Position numbers and translations under genes: made by a program. DNA of 43,016 nucleotides from a virus, in IMG/VR virus record IMGVR_UViG_3300002026_000066, positions 1 through 43,016 of that record, one strand, 5' to 3'. Shown here in pieces: positions 24,897-33,094 of this stretch (its first letter is position 1; each line of letters starts with the position of its first letter). The notes beneath the pieces were generated by a model. It saw only the letters and a list, made by a program, of their open reading frames with translations, ran no database searches and was not told the DNA's origin.

Positions 24897-27770
24897 ATGG
24901 AACAAACAAAAGGCGCTTTTCGGCCTGGCGCGGTCGATGAGCTGAATGCGCGCATTGACTGCCACGACCTGGCGCAGCGGCTGGGGCTTGAGCAGCCGCA
25001 GCAGCGGGGCAACTACCGCAGCCCGCACCACCCCGACAAGGCCCCCAGCGTGGGGGTGTACAAGGACAAAAAGTCGGGCCTCTCCAAGTTCATGGACTAC
25101 AGCACGCAAGAGGGCGGTGGCCCCATTGACATGCTGATGTGGGCCGAGGGGCGCGACTTTGTGGGCGCTGTGCGCGAGCTGGGCAACATGTTTGGCATTG
25201 CGGTTGACCGGCCCAAGCCCCAGGGCAACGGGCAGCCGGGGCCGGTGGTGAAGCAGAGCCTGGCTGAGTTCATTGGCGAGAAGTGCCGCAAGGCTGTTGC
25301 CACCGATGACGGCAAGGCCCGCGTGCAGGCCTACCTGGAGGGCCGGGGCATTGCCCGTGCCGTGGTGGACCGGTCGCTGGCCAAGGGCTCGTTGGGCCTG
25401 AACACTTACCTGAACGACAAGGTGCCCGAGGGCCAGCCTGGCCACGGTGGGCCAGCGGTGGCGTTTTTGGTGCGCCACATTCAAACGGGTGAGGTGGTGG
25501 CGGTGGACATGCGCTACTTCAACCCCGAAATCAACGGCCACGTCAAAACCCAGTGCCAGGGCGAAAAGCACGGTTTTGCCTGGACGAGCGACTGGCGCCG
25601 GGTGCGCGATGCCCGCACGGTGTATGTGGTGGAGAGCCCCATCAATGCCCTGACCATCGAGACGTGCATGGACCCGGCTGACGGCAGTAAGTACGACGGG
25701 CGGGTGGCGGCAGTGGCCATCCGTGGCACGGGCAATGTGGACAACATTGACTGGAGTTTTTGCCGGGGCAAACAGGTGATTGGGGTGATGGACAACGACC
25801 CGCCCCAGGCGCACGGGCCCCAAGAGGGCTATTGCCCCGGCCTGAAGGCTGCGTGGCGGCTGCACGAGGTGCTGACGGCGTTGGACATTTCGTGCCTGCT
25901 GGTTGACCAGGCCGGTTGGTTTGAAGACCAGGCCGACATGGACGGCCCGCTGAACGATGTGAACGACTTGCTGAAGGAGTGGGGCGCTGACGCTACCCGC
26001 AAGGAGTTGGCCAAGCTGGAGCAGTGGCTGATACCCGGCATGGTGGGCAACGAGAAGCGCCTGGGCAAGCCCCGGTTGTTTTTGCCCAGCCACGACTACA
26101 TGACGTACTGGAAGTACCGGGTGCAGCCCGACTTCACCAAGCTGATTGGCAAGACCACCAAGGAAGATGACGGCAACGAGAAGCACGAGTTTTCAGACGT
26201 GTGCGGCTTTCGGGTGGCTGCCGTGGCCCGTGTGCGCATTGCCAGCCCGCAAAGCACCATGACGGGCGACGTGGACCACAGCCCACGCACCGTGTTTGCC
26301 CTGAGCGTGCAGGTGGCGCGGCATGGCCCCGTGTTGCAGCGCCGGGTGGTGGATGACGAGCGCCTGCACAACGTGGAGGTGTGGAAAAAGCTGGGCCCGG
26401 TGTATGCCCCGCAGGGGTTTGCCCGCCTGGTGAACATTTGGGAGCGTGCGGCCGAAATTGGCAGCCGCGAGGCCGTCAACTTTGTGGGCCTGGCCTGGCG
26501 CAATGGCAAGCCGGTGGTGAACGAGGGGCCTGACTGCTTTTTTCAAGACCCCCGCCAGCAGTGCCCGTACCACGAGCTGTTGTTTCCGGTGGGCACGGTG
26601 GCGCAGGGGCGGGAGGTGGTGGAGCAGTTTCGCCACACGTTCAAAGACAGCGTGGCGCTGATGCCGCTGGTGTGGGGCCTGGGGGCGCACCTGAAGGCGT
26701 TTTTGGGCTTTTGGCCGCACTTTGTGATGCAGGCCGAAAAGGCCACGGGCAAAACCACGCTGGTCAAGCGGCTGGAGCGCAGCATTGCCATGGTGATGAG
26801 CAGCCGCCAGAGCCTGCAGACCGAGTTCAGGCAGATGACTTCCTTGAGCTACACCAGCCACCCCGTGGGCTGGGGGGAAATGAGCACGAACAAGCAGGAC
26901 ATCATCAACAAGGCGATTCACAACCTGCAAGAGAGTTACCAGTACGAGCACACGCGCCGGGGCTCTGAACTGCTGGACTTTTTGCTGTGTGCCCCTGTTT
27001 TGCTGGCCGGTGAGGATGTGCCGGTGGACAGCCTGGTGGGCAAGGTGGTTCGCAGTGAGCTGACGAAGGGCCGGCGCGGCCCGCTGATACCTGAGGATTG
27101 CCCGGTGTTCCCGGTGAAGCAGTGGTTGCAGTGGCTGGCCAAGCGCAGCAAGGACGAGGTGGTGAGCCTGCACAACGGCATGGTGAAGACGTTTTTTGAT
27201 GGCTGCGTGGCCAGCATGAACGACAGCGGCGCGGAGCGCATGGTGAACAACTATGCCGCGCTGGGCACGGCCTGGGAGCTGCTGTGCCGTTTTTTGGGGC
27301 TGGAGGTTCACAGCACGCCGTTCACGGGGGACTTGATGGCGGAGATGAACCGCCACATCCGCGAGACGGTAAGCGACCGCCAGCCGTGGGCCTGGGTGGT
27401 TGAGAAGCTGTTGAGCGAGATTGCGGCCAAGAAGCTGTTTCACCCGTTTGCGTTTGATGTGGTGACCACTGACGGCACGCATGAGCAGCGCGCGGTGCTG
27501 TGCATTCGCACCAGCCACGTGATGGACCACATGCGCCAGACGCCGTACCTGCGGGAGTTTTGGGACGGCTTGCCGATCAAGAGCGATCGGGTGTTCAAGC
27601 GTCAGCTGGAACAGGCTGGTGTGCTGGTGATGGACCCGGCCACGGGCAATGCACGGATGTTTGAGAAAACCATTGGCCACAACCGCGTGGGCTACATGGT
27701 GGGCCTGAGCCTGCCTGCCCTGATGCAGTACGGGCTGCATGCGGTGGTGCCTACTGAAGGGGGTGTGTGA
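24897..27770 (+). CDS. Primase-helicase (degenerate CHC2-like N-terminus, Toprim domain, P-loop NTPase)
   Basis: The Toprim-like region is VYVVESPINALT...AVAIRGTGN...VIGVMDNDPP. The Walker A-like motif is AEKATGKTT. The N-terminus aligns to the DnaG zinc-finger region (HHPDKAPSVGVY...GGGPIDMLMW) but lacks the Cys ligands. Confidence 0.8.
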   Translation: MEQTKGAFRPGAVDELNARIDCHDLAQRLGLEQPQQRGNYRSPHHPDKAPSVGVYKDKKSGLSKFMDYSTQEGGGPIDMLMWAEGRDFVGAVRELGNMFGIAVDRPKPQGNGQPGPVVKQSLAEFIGEKCRKAVATDDGKARVQAYLEGRGIARAVVDRSLAKGSLGLNTYLNDKVPEGQPGHGGPAVAFLVRHIQTGEVVAVDMRYFNPEINGHVKTQCQGEKHGFAWTSDWRRVRDARTVYVVESPINALTIETCMDPADGSKYDGRVAAVAIRGTGNVDNIDWSFCRGKQVIGVMDNDPPQAHGPQEGYCPGLKAAWRLHEVLTALDISCLLVDQAGWFEDQADMDGPLNDVNDLLKEWGADATRKELAKLEQWLIPGMVGNEKRLGKPRLFLPSHDYMTYWKYRVQPDFTKLIGKTTKEDDGNEKHEFSDVCGFRVAAVARVRIASPQSTMTGDVDHSPRTVFALSVQVARHGPVLQRRVVDDERLHNVEVWKKLGPVYAPQGFARLVNIWERAAEIGSREAVNFVGLAWRNGKPVVNEGPDCFFQDPRQQCPYHELLFPVGTVAQGREVVEQFRHTFKDSVALMPLVWGLGAHLKAFLGFWPHFVMQAEKATGKTTLVKRLERSIAMVMSSRQSLQTEFRQMTSLSYTSHPVGWGEMSTNKQDIINKAIHNLQESYQYEHTRRGSELLDFLLCAPVLLAGEDVPVDSLVGKVVRSELTKGRRGPLIPEDCPVFPVKQWLQWLAKRSKDEVVSLHNGMVKTFFDGCVASMNDSGAERMVNNYAALGTAWELLCRFLGLEVHSTPFTGDLMAEMNRHIRETVSDRQPWAWVVEKLLSEIAAKKLFHPFAFDVVTTDGTHEQRAVLCIRTSHVMDHMRQTPYLREFWDGLPIKSDRVFKRQLEQAGVLVMDPATGNARMFEKTIGHNRVGYMVGLSLPALMQYGLHAVVPTEGGV

Positions 27771-28075
27771 TGGCCCGGCTACACAAAAACCCTTCACTGC
27801 GCCTTTCCGTGTGCTACATTGGCCGTGCCCCATCAAAAAAAGGTGGGGCCGGGTTTGGCGACCCGAAACAATCCTGCGACGAAAGCCGCAGTTCCTCACC
27901 CGCAGAGTCTGCGGCTTCGTTGTCTGTGCCTCCAGTTTTATGGTGGCTCGATGGGAGGCCGAAAGGCCTGCCGGTTTCCGCAAGGATTGTCCGGTTCGCC
28001 AACCCGTCGAGCTACCGCCCCTGTTTGGCGACGAGGGCGGTGGTTTTTGCAAACCACAATCCTTGGAGGCCTTCA
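27771..28075 (+). other. Structured non-coding region (candidate ncRNA or replication origin)
   Basis: No convincing coding frame. Several hairpins are present: 27880-27919, GAAA tetraloop 27956-27969, 27993-28004, 28041-28056. A 9-bp long-range pairing joins 27982-27990 to 28056-28064. The 10-mer GTTTGGCGAC is repeated at 27853 and 28023. Confidence 0.4.
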
Positions 28076-28381
28076 ATGGCTGCTGCCCACACCCGCCCGG
28101 ACGCGTCCGGCGCATCTGCCCGTTCCCACGTTTCCACCGCTGCCCCTGGCCCTGACACCGACTGTCTGGCCGAGCTGCTGCATGGCTGCACCGCTGAGTG
28201 CGCCCACACAACCCAGGCGCTGGCCAGCTTGGTGCAACTGCTGCAAGGCTGCCAACCCGGCCACACCCTGAGCGCTGGCGGCCTGCTGGCCCTGCTGGAG
28301 CCGCTGGCCGGTTCGCTCGACTCGCTGTGCAACGACTTGCACACCGCGCATTCCCTGTTCCCCCAGCCACACCACCACTGA
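28076..28381 (+). CDS. Hypothetical protein (101 aa, helical, Cys/His-rich)
   Basis: GGAGG lies 8 nt upstream of the ATG at 28076. Only the 3' third of the track ORF 27767-28381 looks protein-like. Confidence 0.4.
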   Translation: MAAAHTRPDASGASARSHVSTAAPGPDTDCLAELLHGCTAECAHTTQALASLVQLLQGCQPGHTLSAGGLLALLEPLAGSLDSLCNDLHTAHSLFPQPHHH

Positions 28382-28392
28382 AAGGCACCGCC

Positions 28393-28938
28393 ATGGACAA
28401 CATTCGTTTTGCCAAGCTGCCCAAGGGGGCTTACCTCATCGTCACAGACGGCTCTGAGAGGGGGGATTTTGAAACCGTCATCAAAAACCTGGCTCGCCAG
28501 ATGGCGTCAGGCTCTTCAGAGCTGCTGAGTGATGCCAGCCTTCTGGATTGGATTGGACGCACCAAGCCCAGGGCAGTGGCAACACCCGCTGATTCGCATC
28601 GGGCGATCAGCATTCACCTGCTGAAACATGCGTTCAAGGTGATGGCCATGGGGAATTTCCGCCGTCCGTATCGCTGGGATGCCTTCAGCGGCTGGGTGGA
28701 CGTTCGCATGACGCACCTGGCAGAGCTTCAGACGGATGAAACAGCCGCTCGATGGGGGGGCAAGGTCACTTCCCGTGTGCTGCAACGTGAGTTGCTGAAT
28801 TTGGGCTTGCTGGACGCCCTGAGCAGCGGCAAGGCCAAGGAGGTGGAGAGGACGATTGATGGCCACCGCGTGGGCCACATGGTTTCCATTCACATTGGCA
28901 CCGCCACCGAGTTGGTGTTGGCCCACCCGGAGGAGTAA
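28393..28938 (+). CDS. Hypothetical protein whose C-terminus is paralogous to the primase-helicase C-terminus
   Basis: ATG at 28393 inside the track ORF 28198-28938. The segment TSRVLQRELLNLGLL...VERTIDGHRVGHMV aligns with SDRVFKRQLEQAGVL...FEKTIGHNRVGYMV of the 24897-27770 product. Confidence 0.5.
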   Translation: MDNIRFAKLPKGAYLIVTDGSERGDFETVIKNLARQMASGSSELLSDASLLDWIGRTKPRAVATPADSHRAISIHLLKHAFKVMAMGNFRRPYRWDAFSGWVDVRMTHLAELQTDETAARWGGKVTSRVLQRELLNLGLLDALSSGKAKEVERTIDGHRVGHMVSIHIGTATELVLAHPEE

Positions 28939-29652
28939 CGGAAATGCGGCCCACCAAGGCGTTTTCGGGCGTTGCCCATGCCAGTGCATCAACCTCGCGC
29001 CAAAGTCGCCTTGTGGGCGGTTTTGGCGGGTCGGTTTTGCAGGTCTGGCCCCAGCCCCACGTTCTAGGCATGGGGGAGGGTGGTGCTTACCCGGCCTGTA
29101 TGCCCCCCCGTATCCCCCGCCTAGAAAGCCGCGCACCTGTGGGGGGGCAGACCAGCAGGAGGGAGGGGGCGGCAATAGATTTTCTCAACCGGGATGGGGT
29201 GGCACTCTTCAAAACGTCCCCAACTCTGGGAAAGTTACCGTTTTCGTCCGTGGAAGTGGCTCTGGCTATAGGTTTCTTGCTTTTTTGCATCCCAGAAATG
29301 CAACCAAAGTCCCAAGATTTCGCACGTTTTTTCCACGAGTCTGTTTTTTGGGTTTTCGCGCCCCTTCTTCTTCTTTTTCTTCTTTTTATAGAGAGAGAAA
29401 CAGAGGTAAAGATGAGGGGTGACGGGCGAAAAAGTGTCCCAAGAGTCAGCCGTTTTTTTACTTGGAAAGTTTTCCGCAAAAAAAACGGGGATCAAGAGTC
29501 GGGGACTCCGAAACGAGCTAATTCAAGGATTTCTGGGGCAGGCGTTTCCAATGAAATCAACGGGTTAGGTGTGTTCGATGGGGTCATCCCAGCAAACAAG
29601 AAAGAAATGCCCCCCTCCCCCCCGCGATCGCTGTTTTTTGGAGGTGCCAGCC
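28939..29652. other. Roughly 700-nt non-coding tract upstream of the tyrosine integrase gene (candidate attP and/or large ncRNA)
   Basis: All ORFs here translate to low-complexity sequence. Contents: C7 and G7 runs that can pair (29101-09 with 29141-49); a 27-nt pure pyrimidine run (29361-87) followed by a purine-rich run; GTCCCAAGA at 29309 and 29436; CAAGAGTC at 29440 and 29493; about ten (C/G)GTTTT(T) motifs. Confidence 0.5.
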
Positions 29653-30690
29653 ATGGCCAATGAGATCGAATGGACTGACGAGCTGGCCGTGGGTGCCTAC
29701 CTGGACTATTTGGGCATGGCCCGTGGCCTGAGCCCGCGCACGCTTGAGATTTACGGGCTGGCCTTGCGTCGGCTGAAGGAGTTTTTGCAGGGCAAGCCGC
29801 TGCTGGACGCTGACGGCATGGAGTTGGAGGCGTTTTGTGGCCTGTGGCTGCACCGCAAGGGTGTGGTGGCCACCAGTCGCAAGCCGTATGTGGCCGCGGT
29901 GCGCAGCTTTTACGCCTGGGCCAATGACAAGGGGTTGCTGGAAGATGAGCTGGGCAACCCGGCCAGGCAGGTGCAGCAGCCGAAGGGGGGCAGCCGGTTG
30001 CCGCGCTCGATGTCGCTGTCAAGCGCCGAGAAATTGATGTGGGCCCCTGACCTGGGCACGTTTGTGGGCATTCGGGATGCGGCCATGTTGTCGCTGCTGA
30101 TGGGCTGTGGCCTGCGTGTGTCGGGCCTCACAGCCCTGAATGTGGGCGACCTGAGGACGATGCAGGTGGATGGCCGCCCCCGCCTGATGCTGCTGGTGAC
30201 CGAGAAGGGCAACCGTCAGCGCATGGTGCCCTTGCCGCGTGAGGCTGACAGCCTGTTGCGGGTGTACATGGGGCATGAGGAACTGGCCAGCATTGACCGC
30301 CAGGTGACGAACCAACAGGGCAAGCCTGACAAGGTGCTGTTCGTGAACACCAAGCACCCAGCCCTTGCCGAGCATGAGCATGTGGGCGAGGCCCGCAGGC
30401 TGACGCGCCGGTCTGTGCACGACATGATCCAGCGCTATGGCCGCCGTGTGGGCATCCCTGAGCATGAGCTGCACCCCCATGCCATGCGTCACCTGTTCGG
30501 TACCGAGTTGACCGAGGGCGACGTGCCCACCATCACCACTCAGGGGCTGATGGGCCACGTTGACCCCAAGAGCACCGCTATCTATGTGGAGCTGGCCATG
30601 ACCAAGAAGATGAAGGTGGTCGACCAGCACGCACCGCTGGCCAAGATGAAGACGCCCGTAGGCGAGTTCCTCAAGCGCATGCCGCGCTGA
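29653..30690 (+). CDS. Tyrosine recombinase/integrase, XerC/D-like (345 aa)
   Basis: GGAGG ribosome-binding site. N-terminal SAM-like core-binding domain (YLDYLGMARGLSPRTLEIYGLALRRL). Catalytic R (CGLRVSG), HxxR (HAMRHLF), and H/Y (GHVDPKSTAIYV). Confidence 0.85.
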   Translation: MANEIEWTDELAVGAYLDYLGMARGLSPRTLEIYGLALRRLKEFLQGKPLLDADGMELEAFCGLWLHRKGVVATSRKPYVAAVRSFYAWANDKGLLEDELGNPARQVQQPKGGSRLPRSMSLSSAEKLMWAPDLGTFVGIRDAAMLSLLMGCGLRVSGLTALNVGDLRTMQVDGRPRLMLLVTEKGNRQRMVPLPREADSLLRVYMGHEELASIDRQVTNQQGKPDKVLFVNTKHPALAEHEHVGEARRLTRRSVHDMIQRYGRRVGIPEHELHPHAMRHLFGTELTEGDVPTITTQGLMGHVDPKSTAIYVELAMTKKMKVVDQHAPLAKMKTPVGEFLKRMPR

Positions 30691-30986
30691 TTCCCCTGAG
30701 CCCTGCACCACCAGGGCCAAACCCCAACCCCCAATTTTTCACACCATTCTGAGGGCCATCCCGATATGTCCGTCCTACCTGCACCATTACACAACGCCTA
30801 TTCTGGGGGGGTCTACAAACCCTGCGCCGCTACAGCCGTAGAGCGTGGCGGCCTGGGCTTGCGGGGTTCCGCAAATTTCCCGAATATCGGGCTAACTCGT
30901 GCGAGGGGGGTCGATGGGTCGCTGCGTTGTTTGGCAATAGTCGCAGTGATGCACACTGGCTGCACTGGCATGGCAGGGGGTGCACG

Positions 30987-31475
30987 ATGATGCAAAGTCG
31001 CAGTGATGACGGTGCAGGCCTGCAGCTTGATTGGGTTGGTGGTGTGCCTGTGCAGGGGGTGGGGGCTCGGCAGGCCAGCCCCTCACGGCCCCGGCGGGGG
31101 GGTGGGTACCTGGATGAATGCATTGCTCCGCAACTTTCGGCTGATGCCCGATTTCGCGAGCTGGAGGAAATGGGCCTGCCCGCCGTGTGGCTGACCCTGG
31201 CCCATGCCATTGGCTATGACCACTTCATGACCATGTGGCGTGTGTTGGATGCCGCGCAGGAAATGCATTCCGACTCTGGCTCGATGATCGAGCTGCAAAT
31301 GCGCCGGTACGGCAGCTTCAAGCGCTTCCAGCGCAACCGTTATGTGGAAACTCTGGTTGACATGGGCTTGTCAGACACGGCCATCAAAGACCGGCTGCAG
31401 GCTGAGTTGGGTGAAGAGCTGAGCATTTCTCACATTGGTCGGCTGACCGGCCCGCGTAGAGTGGGGGCACGATGA
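30987..31475 (+). CDS. Mor-like HTH protein (possible transcription activator or recombination directionality factor)
   Basis: The C-terminal RNRYVETLVDMGLSDTAIKDRLQAELGEELSISHIGRL resembles the Mor/middle-operon-regulator HTH. ATGA-coupled to the serine recombinase gene. The start is uncertain. Confidence 0.4.
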   Translation: MMQSRSDDGAGLQLDWVGGVPVQGVGARQASPSRPRRGGGYLDECIAPQLSADARFRELEEMGLPAVWLTLAHAIGYDHFMTMWRVLDAAQEMHSDSGSMIELQMRRYGSFKRFQRNRYVETLVDMGLSDTAIKDRLQAELGEELSISHIGRLTGPRRVGAR

Positions 31476-33094
31476 AAAAAGCCGTGATCTATGCCCGCGT
31501 GAGCACCAAGCGCCAGGCCGATGACGGACTGCCGGTGGAGAGTCAGATTGACCACTGCCAGACCAAGGCCGCAGGCATGGGGCTGCAGGTGGCCAAGGTG
31601 TTTGTGGACGGCGGCATTTCAGGCACTACCGACAAGCGCCCCGCCTTTCAGGACGCACTGAACTACTGCGCGCTGATGGACGTGGACTACTTCATTTGCT
31701 GGAGCAGCAGCCGCTTTGCCCGCAACCACCTGGACGCTGGCCACTACAAGGCCCAGTTGGCCAGGTACGGCACCCGGCTCATTTACAGCAGCACGGAGGT
31801 GGACATTCGCACCGACGACGGCTGGTTCATTGATGCCATTGGCTCGGTCATTGACGAGCGGTATTCGCGCCAGGTGAGCACCGACACGCGGCGCAGCATG
31901 CTGAAGGCCGCGCGCGACGGGTTTTTTCTGGGTGGCCGTGTGCCGTTTGGGTACCTGACGGTGCCCGACGGCAAGCGAAAGCGCCTGGCCGTGCACCCGG
32001 TGGAGGGGCCGCAGATTCGGCGTCTGTTCGACATGGCGCTGAACGGCTGGGGTACCAAGATGATTGCTCTGCAGCTCAATGCCCAGGGGCTGAGCATTCG
32101 GGGCAAGGCCTGGAGCAAAAACACCGTTAATTTCATTCTGAAGAACGAGGTGTATGCGGGCCTGAGCGTGTTCAACCGCAAAAAGGGCCGTGTGGACAAC
32201 CCGCGCGAGGACTGGGTGAAGGTCACCAGCCATGAGGGCTTGGTGAATGAAGCTGATTTTGAAAGGGTGCAAACCATGGTGACCGACCGACAACCCATGA
32301 ACGTGGGTGGCCAGCCGCGTAGCAACTTCGCCTTCACCGGCCTGCTGCAGTGTGGCGTGTGCGGGGCCGGCCTGCAGACCTGCAGCGGCACCGGGCGCAG
32401 CAAGGTGTATCACTACTACGGCTGCCGTGACGCTTTGAGCGGCAAAAACCGCTGCAGCATGAAGAAGGTGAGGGCAGACCTGTTTGACGAATGGATGCTG
32501 TCGGCCTTGCTGGACGAAGTTCTGACGCCCGAACGCATGCTGGATGTGTTTGCCCAGGCTGCGGCGCAGCGCCAAGAGTGGGTGAAAGACCGGGCGGGTC
32601 GTCGAGAGGGGTTGGTAAACGAGATGCGCACGGTGGAGCGGTCTCGCGGGAATCTTTACGGCTTGCTAGAGCTGCACGGGGTGAACGCGCCAAATCTGGG
32701 GGATTTGACGGTTAGGCTTCGGGAACTGAACGAGCGCCTGAAGAAGCTGGAGGCAACGTTGCTGGAGCTGGAGAGTGAACCTCTGTCGCCAGGCGATTTG
32801 CCCGATGCGGATCCGCAGGAGGTGGCTGAAGTGCTGAGGGGGGTGGTGATGGATTGCCAGGATCCACGCAAGGTGCGTGCGTTCTTGGGGTCATTTGTGA
32901 AGGGAATTAGCCTTGGCGAATCAACCGTGGAGGTTGAGTATTTGCCGGAGTGCCTGGTGCGGCTGAATAGCCGCACCAGGGTTCACAGTGGTAATGGTTG
33001 GCTCCCCAACCTTGGCACACAGCGAACCATTACGGCCACGTTGGAGCGGCCTTTGCGGTTTGGTGTCAGGTGGGTGGATGCCATTGCGGCCTGA
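31472..33094 (+). CDS. Large serine recombinase (540 aa)
   Basis: N-terminal resolvase domain AVIYARVSTKRQ (catalytic Ser), recombinase domain, zinc ribbon (LQCGVCG...YYGCR...RC), and a C-terminal coiled coil. Confidence 0.9.
   Translation: MKKAVIYARVSTKRQADDGLPVESQIDHCQTKAAGMGLQVAKVFVDGGISGTTDKRPAFQDALNYCALMDVDYFICWSSSRFARNHLDAGHYKAQLARYGTRLIYSSTEVDIRTDDGWFIDAIGSVIDERYSRQVSTDTRRSMLKAARDGFFLGGRVPFGYLTVPDGKRKRLAVHPVEGPQIRRLFDMALNGWGTKMIALQLNAQGLSIRGKAWSKNTVNFILKNEVYAGLSVFNRKKGRVDNPREDWVKVTSHEGLVNEADFERVQTMVTDRQPMNVGGQPRSNFAFTGLLQCGVCGAGLQTCSGTGRSKVYHYYGCRDALSGKNRCSMKKVRADLFDEWMLSALLDEVLTPERMLDVFAQAAAQRQEWVKDRAGRREGLVNEMRTVERSRGNLYGLLELHGVNAPNLGDLTVRLRELNERLKKLEATLLELESEPLSPGDLPDADPQEVAEVLRGVVMDCQDPRKVRAFLGSFVKGISLGESTVEVEYLPECLVRLNSRTRVHSGNGWLPNLGTQRTITATLERPLRFGVRWVDAIAA

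Follow-up and report, generated by a model that had tools for sequence, protein, structure and literature searches.

In satellite phage P4 a single chain, the alpha protein, serves as primase and helicase and ends in a winged helix that binds the origin. The P4 origin carries type I iterons of 8 bp (TGTTCACC), some direct and some inverted, P4 requires a second site, crr, 4.5 kb away, and the small protein Cnr modulates origin binding. Iteron plasmids (pSC101, RK2, F and P1 oriR) have iterons of 17–22 bp that are read by a dimeric or monomeric Rep protein recruiting host DnaB, and their origins combine direct repeats of ~21-bp period by an unwinding element with an integration host factor (IHF) site and inverted copies near the downstream gene. 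In the Staphylococcus aureus pathogenicity islands (SaPIs), the origin is a ~300-bp region downstream of rep in which short iterons, some of them inverted, surround an AT-rich centre, and the winged helix of the SaPI Reps binds these iterons with its beta-hairpin wing in the major groove (bioRxiv 10.64898/2026.10.17.759575). Here we analysed a virus genome of 43,016 bp (IMG/VR record IMGVR_UViG_3300002026_000066, the whole of which is called the window), a complete record with direct terminal repeats at both ends, and a tract within it (28939–29652) that lies directly upstream of a tyrosine recombinase gene. We predict that ~29150–29630 of this tract is a phage replication origin of the SaPI/P4 type, served by a self-loading initiator-helicase, and we put the probability of this reading at about 0.8.

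A sequence-only reading of the same stretch had described the tract as roughly 700 gene-free nucleotides with pairing homopolymer runs, a pyrimidine/purine switch and repeated 8–9-mers, and had named a phage attachment site (attP) for the adjacent integrase as the conservative interpretation, with a large structured RNA and, last, a replication origin as further possibilities. A script check found the named motifs at the positions given for them and confirmed the observation as a whole. It was the interpretation named last that gained support, from the iteron layout, the association with a primase, the winged-helix fold of that primase's C-terminal domain and the co-variation between the wing and the iterons.

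Layout of the element and its relatives

Related loci were collected with the recombinase as query (37 loci) and with an alignment of the DnaG-like primase of the window as second query (80 loci). A blastn search of the window tract against phage records gave no match; the element was traced via its flanking proteins and via the copy in phage KS5, with which blastn found it in 66 phage records, mostly with nothing annotated over it. In the window lineage (the Xer group) it stands upstream of a gene for an Xer-like recombinase. About 40 proviruses of isolate genomes, which are P2-like Burkholderia/Ralstonia phages (KS5, KL3, phiE202, phi52237, phiE094, phiX216 and others), share this primase family, and downstream of the primase gene they have the element with its offsets unchanged. 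In the closest relative, locus L002, the recombinase is 96.5% and the primase 93% identical to that of the window, and the tract consists of near-identical blocks mixed with unrelated ones.

Comparison of these loci resolved ~29150–29630 as one module, present also in more than 45 related loci. Within it, a 9-bp motif of the TCCACGGGT type is repeated ~8–13 times, in either orientation and at offsets that are fixed. In the recurring order, one or two inverted copies are followed by two to five direct ones, spaced at a 21-bp period; next comes the centre, in which a short spacer of A/T separates a pyrimidine run (Y-run) from a purine run (R-run), and to its right stand more direct and inverted copies, two tandem copies and a C-rich box. 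The features of the tract in the window are listed below from left to right, with distances counted from the Y/R centre.

28998–29038, + strand: terminator-like hairpin with a 14-pair stem, then the T-run GGTCGGTTTT (terminator scan)
29069–29149: additional boxes rich in G or C, among them the C7/G7 pair 29101–29109/29141–29149; left flank common to L002, block 84% identical
29161–29169, + strand: left boundary G-box GGGAGGGGG, 226 nt to the left of the centre; forms an inverted pair with the C-box
29247–29256, − strand: inverted iteron, CCGTGGAA on the + strand and TTCCACGG on the − strand; homologous to the −151/−137 inverted copy of relatives
29289–29341, + strand: left iteron set, three direct copies ~21 bp apart that abut the centre (ATCCCAGAAAT at 29289, GTCCCAAGATT at 29309, TTCCACGAGTC at 29331)
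29361–29421, + strand: centre, a 27-nt pyrimidine run, ATAG and a purine-rich run; proposed DNA-unwinding region
29436–29508: right iteron set, direct GTCCCAAGAGTC at 29436 and GATCAAGAGTC at 29489, inverted CTTGGAA at 29461 and GACTC at 29504
29555–29567, + strand: IHF-consensus site AATCAACGGGTTA (WATCAANNNNTTR), the forward site
29586–29626, + strand: outermost iteron(s) ATCCCAGCAA, then right boundary C-box AATGCCCCCCTCCCCCCCGCG, its CCCCCTCCC core 224 nt past the centre

The iteron copies of the window occupy the canonical positions. In relatives the motif stands in reverse orientation at −151 and forward at −94, −73 and −52, then, right of the centre, forward at +64, +85, +117 and +137, in reverse at +146/+156 and forward again at +212 and +220. 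The left copies of the window lie at −98, −78 and −56, and homologues of its right-hand copies, direct and inverted, are found in relatives at +49/+64, +85, +117, +137 and +146. This recurrence of motif positions at equal offsets in dozens of related loci places the repeats beyond chance. Five left direct copies with the 21-bp period are present in L025. The iteron is TCCACGGGT in most loci, with variants TCCACAGGT, CCACGAGT and TCCACCAA, and TCCCCGTG in L002; the iterons of the window are heterogeneous (GTCCCAAGA, TTCCACGAGTC, GATCAAGAGTC and ATCCCAGNAA). The repeats singled out before were recovered: two copies of GTCCCAAGA (29309 and 29436) and a degenerate one (29216), and two of CAAGAGTC (29440 and 29492). 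For the (C/G)GTTTT motifs, said to recur about ten times, the enrichment stood (9.8 per kb against 0.8 per kb window-wide, twelve-fold) but the number did not, with 7 copies counted.

The composition switch was likewise borne out, as a pure pyrimidine run of 27 nt (29361–29387) followed by a purine-rich run (29390–29421). In most Xer-group loci a Y-run followed by an R-run precedes the start of the recombinase gene by ~225–268 nt; in most P2-like loci it comes 250–630 nt past the primase stop. The centre is more A+T-rich than its flanks in 45 of 46 loci, and its strand asymmetry is conserved. Among the same number of loci, a strict IHF-consensus forward site occurs at +146 to +180 in 17, and 22 have a reverse-oriented mirror site between about −122 and −141, most often at −124.

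Two boundary boxes enclose the module. The complementary runs GGGAGGGG (29161–29168) and CCCCTCCC (29612–29619), claimed to pair, are both present there, and at −226 and +224 from the centre they form part of the G-box/C-box pair. The inverted match between left and right boundary exists in the window and in many relatives, reaching 30–40 bp, imperfect, in P2-like members, and the outermost iterons and C-box are found also in KS5 and KS14. Pairs of boxes from the same locus scored 19.1 on average and cross-locus pairs 17.3 (standard deviation 4.4), a test of pairing that is not informative because the boxes themselves are conserved. The second claimed pair, TGCCCCCCC (29101–29109) with GGGGGGGCA (29141–29149), was also found in place; it belongs to the left flank, where the direct repeat CCCCCGTATCCCCCGC (29105) is similar to the C-box on the right (29610). 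The first ~200 nt of the tract (28939–29150) consist of these extra G/C boxes together with the terminator and 3' flank that belong to the upstream gene. The terminator-like hairpin is probably outside the origin, and homology to L002 begins at 29012.

A gene of ~160–180 amino acids, which we provisionally take from its sequence to be DUF1643, is inserted between origin and Xer-like gene in two loci (L026:3447–3989 and L027:3508–3993; the two copies are 71% identical) and marks the right boundary of the origin. In another locus, where the usual element is lacking, nine tandem 12-bp units with CGCCGGTA stand 600–700 nt upstream of the Xer-like gene (L020:2035–2140).

At the level of whole genomes the element is associated with the primase family and not with any recombinase. 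The ~40 isolate proviruses are without the Xer-like gene and without the two genes that follow it in the window (a 182-aa open reading frame (ORF) and a serine recombinase), and have instead an HTH_17 (Xis-like) gene and an unrelated lambda-type tyrosine integrase of 358 aa at the edge. Phage KS14 is maintained as a plasmid in its lysogens and lacks a tyrosine integrase (PMC3091744); it has the primase, and a gap of 740 nt next to its parA gene holds the full element (iteron TCCTCGG). Conversely, complete record G001 has the Xer-like gene, and both primase and element are absent. Since the element is present without an integrase (KS14), absent without the primase (G001) and intact in proviruses, it is not an integration crossover and tracks the primase family. 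In the window it lies ~1.4 kb past the primase stop, beyond an inserted module.

Two further arrangements were seen. In loci L028 and L030 a recombinase of the same family is accompanied by another primase-like protein, of ~1050 aa, and by a different iteron, GGGTGCAAGT, in a similar layout; their GGGTGCAAGT iterons with an A-rich centre (L028:3440–4000, L030:3440–4000) form a second origin variant. In the isolated Microcystis phage vB_MaeS-yong1 (L127; MT855965 ~27760–28170), the same element as in the window, with TTCCACG iterons, a Y/R centre and IHF-like sites, stands upstream of an Xer-like gene, ~10 kb from the phage's own primase gene.

The primase winged helix and the iterons

The primase, or primase-helicase, of the window is a 957-aa DnaG-like protein (24897–27770, + strand; Pfam Zn_ribbon_DnaG and Toprim_3; PHROG 5629, E = 0). 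An AlphaFold model of its last 180 residues reached a predicted local distance difference test score (pLDDT) of 90, and the C-terminal domain (~aa 830–957) is a winged helix in that model. Foldseek with the model gave weak hits (E ~0.02) to winged helices that bind origins of transfer (oriT) or replication and to SaPIbov1 Rep. A VIA-align search of 48,161 chains returned residues 453–565 of SaPIbov1 Rep as the sole match with Z >= 8 (Z 8.9, 100 residues aligned, root-mean-square deviation 3.4 Å), followed by a DUF1528 C-terminal domain and the oriT-binding winged helix TcpK. The origin-binding domain of P4 alpha was not among the structural matches listed, nor did P4 alpha appear as a sequence or fold match among the reported hits; a similarity may still exist.

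In the primase family the wing reads ..ERTIxxRRVxHL.., and the residue at the position of Y933 varies with the iteron: H goes with GGGT, Y with GAGT or TAGT, N with AGGT and R with CAAA. These pairings change together at at least five independent places on the primase tree, with one exception (L059). A sister pair at 94% identity differs in both, the window having Y and GAGT and L039 having H and G[G/T]GT, and a Y-to-H reversal nested inside a Burkholderia clade is accompanied by a change of the iteron. Such co-variation is the pattern predicted by direct read-out by the phage protein, and it argues against host DnaA as the main reader. Co-variation and fold thus support the prediction that the primase wing reads the iterons.

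We infer binding, melting at the centre, helicase activity and a start of replication at this site, and the steps would be as follows. The 957-aa protein, comprising a DnaG-like primase, a P-loop part that is probably a helicase and the C-terminal winged helix, would bind the ~9-bp iterons through its beta-hairpin wing, in both orientations and on both sides of the centre, while the IHF-type bending sites would help the DNA to wrap. The A/T-richer Y-run/R-run centre would then open, the helicase would load and the primase would initiate synthesis. A Walker A motif (KATGKTT) is present in the central part of the primase, and ESM features of this part point to DUF927 clusters (similarity 0.96–0.97).

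Compared with the SaPI origins (~300–450 bp, downstream of pri/rep; bioRxiv 10.64898/2026.10.17.759575; PMC9371898), the element is alike in size, in its usual place downstream of the gene for the predicted initiator and in having iterons on both sides of a meltable centre, some of them inverted. The likeness extends to the initiators: SaPI Rep and PriRep also have a C-terminal winged helix whose wing reads the iterons, the primase domain is structurally closest to that of SaPIbov1 Rep, and iteron specificity changes with the protein in both. In contrast, there is no detectable sequence similarity; the present iterons are of 9 bp and those of SaPIs of 5–7 bp; the centre is a Y-run/R-run with moderate A+T enrichment rather than a 100-bp AT-rich block; IHF-consensus sites and G/C-rich boundary boxes are added; the hosts are high-GC Proteobacteria; and the primase part is DnaG-like, with zinc ribbon and Toprim. 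Iteron plasmid origins share with the element the repeat period, the IHF site and the inverted copies, and differ from it in that the present repeats are of 9 bp, the predicted reader is a primase-(helicase) fusion and the downstream gene encodes a recombinase and not a rep protein. The primase of the window, if its central part is a helicase, would resemble the alpha protein of P4 in its combination of parts, and the P4 origin is alike in having short iterons in both orientations. A second copy of the element, comparable to P4 crr, was not found in the window.

Directly upstream of the tract, a stand-alone paralogue of the primase C-terminal domain, of 181 aa, is encoded at 28393–28938 on the + strand (hhalign probability 97.6%, E = 4e-12, 114 columns). 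It shares the wing motif, as ERTIxxHRVGHMV, with RVGHMV where the primase has RVGYMV, that is, H for Y. A role as regulator of the origin or as reader of a second type of iteron is conceivable for this protein, and a comparison with P4 Cnr is invited. A broader proposal is that one wing residue (H/Y/N/R) sets one or two iteron bases (GGGT/GAGT/AGGT/CAAA), with specificity re-set by single substitutions and concerted repeat change. The window would perhaps be caught mid-switch, because its iterons are heterogeneous, its primase wing has Y and the wing of the adjacent paralogue has H, and the Y/R centre would perhaps be a strand-asymmetric unwinding or priming element, not a plain AT-rich DNA-unwinding element. 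We put this proposal forward tentatively and regard it as doubtful.

Several points weigh against an origin read by the primase. No replication data for element-bearing phages were found in the literature. The iterons of the window are fewer and more heterogeneous than those of its relatives, and their TCCAC core resembles part of the DnaA box. Pfam and Protein Data Bank (PDB) sequence searches found no helicase domain in the primase, the PDB matches covering the DnaG zinc-ribbon/primase part only, and the AlphaFold model of residues 470–800 has a pLDDT of 41; a helicase part is predicted from the Walker A motif and the likeness to DUF927. Moreover, in several relatives the element is 9–12 kb from the primase, yet always just upstream of the Xer-like gene. 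The element may therefore additionally hold the control region of the Xer-like gene, for example its promoter.

Other explanations for the tract

The attP with arm-type sites that the sequence-only reading took as the conservative choice was considered in a wider form, in which the tract is an attP or other recombination site (for example for dimer resolution) of the Xer-like recombinase, the repeats being accessory or arm-type sites and the Y/R centre the crossover core. The attP sites of lambda and L5 also have IHF sites and flanking direct repeats, and a lambda-type attP intasome has, like the element, a core flanked by direct-repeat arrays and IHF sites beside an integrase gene; the fixed distance from the Xer-like gene throughout the Xer/serine-recombinase lineage, even where the primase is far off, fits such a site as well. 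Unlike a lambda-type attP, however, the element is unsplit in prophages, exists without an integrase and has repeats that follow the primase. The Xer-like enzyme matches XerC/D models (300 positions) along its whole length (residues 10–330), and on this ground it is without an arm-binding domain. The same element, with the same offsets, lies beside an unrelated integrase and Xis module, or beside none (KS14), and G001 has the recombinase and no element. Provirus records hold it unsplit: G002, which contains locus L014 and is classed as a provirus, has it intact inside, and in full-length records of the window lineage, which stop immediately past the serine recombinase, the element is whole. 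Despite the near-identity of their recombinases, the window and L002 differ at several positions of the repeats, and the distance from Y-run to R-run ranges over 1–13 nt, which is not how a crossover spacer behaves. In characterised relatives, attP is at the 3' end of int, where it is identical to the end of a tRNA-Phe gene (phi52237 and phiE202; PMC2920897), or KS5 uses the end adjoining the int 3' end to integrate into the AMP nucleosidase gene (PMC3091744), which speaks against a core within the tract. Taken together, we consider a recombination site improbable here. Reading the repeats as host DnaA boxes would leave the tract an origin, or make it a DnaA-titrating region, with DnaA and not the phage primase-helicase as the reader. 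The DnaA box is TTATCCACA, and many iteron copies have the form (T)ATCCAC(A/G), which is near it, with box-like examples in L024 (TTTATCCACG) and L018 (TGTATCCACAGG). Their conserved part nevertheless reaches beyond the box on the 3' side (..GGGT), the TTA part is not conserved, whole arrays have diverged from the box (TCCTCGG in KS14, GCGCGGGT in L084 and L117, TCCCCGTG in L002, CCCAAGAGT in the window), and iteron changes track a residue of a phage protein, so we give DnaA as the reader little credence. A partition site (parS) was ruled out, as the element occurs in integrated relatives without ParA; a packaging site was ruled out too, the direct terminal repeat sitting at the record ends.

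A large structured noncoding RNA, or a recombinase mRNA with a long structured leader, would account for the long-range complementarity of G-box and C-box and of the C7/G7 runs, for the conserved strand asymmetry of the centre and for the imperfect hairpin into which the centre alone folds in the window (z = −2.7). No Rfam family and no conserved fold beyond the pairing of iteron copies emerged, however. The Rfam scan, which included the GOLLD, ROOL and HEARO models and covered the window at gathering thresholds and 28800–29750 at E up to 5, gave nothing in the tract beyond sub-threshold miRNA-like hairpin noise of 16–19 bits. RNAalifold found 0 pairs for the centre (18 loci), where no hairpin is kept in register across the 18 diverse loci; for the whole element (16 loci) it found 17 pairs at −13.6 kcal/mol, all between inverted and direct iteron copies. 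A promoter scan of 27700–29800 detected no sigma-70-like promoter. An RNA function for the tract is very improbable on this evidence. The statement that the tract has no credible ORF was right as to its noncoding nature but calls for a caveat: a 239-codon frame with ATG start (28944–29663) spans all of it. If this frame were a genuine, fast-evolving gene, its length, reached by just 14 of 2000 dinucleotide shuffles, and its ATG, 5 nt past the upstream stop, would be explained; L002 retains a 234-codon frame at 41% identity, six further relatives show open runs of 150 codons or more, and some phages have GenBank ORFs annotated over the element. The tract is nonetheless judged noncoding, because codon-position GC bias is absent (0.59/0.50/0.54 at positions 1/2/3, against 0.77–0.85 at the third position of clear phage genes), the 239-aa product has no match in Pfam (nor in PHROG or NCBIfam) and the frame is interrupted in most relatives. 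The apparently conserved residues are translated DNA motifs (iterons give PRV, STGC or STKC, the Y/R centre FSLFSL..KERERE), and Y-runs, R-runs, G/C runs and iterons are all poor in stop triplets. A protein-coding gene is thus extremely unlikely. The GenBank ORFs over the element (Mana, AP3, Momento, phiE094, BEK) are named 'putative membrane protein', 'putative baseplate J family protein' and 'hypothetical protein'; they are probably spurious, long stop-free frames being common in the element.

Gene neighbourhood and significance

The window derives from a temperate, tailed phage (~63% G+C) that encodes a tape-measure protein and an Ant antirepressor, along with head genes and Arc-like repressors. 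The neighbours of the tract other than the primase are as follows.

27936–28022: C4 antisense RNA (Rfam RF01695, 64.8 bits), the sole gathering-level Rfam match in the window, outside the tract
28198/28393–28938, + strand: gene upstream of the tract (246/181 aa, according to start), which includes the paralogue described above; Pfam, PHROG and NCBIfam silent
29653–30690: Xer-like tyrosine recombinase gene downstream of the tract, matching XerC/XerD models
Between the Xer-like and serine recombinase genes: ORF of 182 aa with no Pfam, PHROG or NCBIfam match
31472–33094: large serine recombinase, 540 aa (Pfam/PHROG)

The cassette of Xer-like recombinase, 182-aa ORF and large serine recombinase (29653–33094) is kept in ~35 viral contigs. 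The serine recombinase stands at the provirus edge and is therefore probably the integrase of the window lineage. The interval from the primase stop to the origin (27771–29011; L002:1847–3347) is an insertion hot spot: from the primase stop to 29012, L002 carries an entirely different inserted module, with unrelated ORFs of 334 and 130 aa in place of the C4 RNA and upstream ORF of the window, and L012 and L035 have insertions as well. A homologue search with the upstream 246-aa ORF returned no related loci. In KS14 (L122/L121; NC_015273 ~29640–30050 and 30230–30400), the element lies between gp39 and parA, the annotated 3' end of gp39 overlaps the C-box, and ATATCAAC palindromes resembling a par operator or centromere stand just upstream of parA.

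The element is predicted to be an unannotated example of a known origin type. It would locate the probable origin of the P2-like Burkholderia/Ralstonia phages (KS5, KL3, KS14, phiE202, phi52237 and phiX216) and of a wide metagenomic group, in a medically and agriculturally relevant set of phages whose GenBank records leave the region blank or under doubtful ORFs. It would also explain what the KS14 plasmid prophage could replicate from. A repeat-rich tract upstream of an integrase gene, moreover, need not be an attP. Finally, the family would offer natural variants of initiator and iteron specificity for studying how self-loading helicases recognise their origins.

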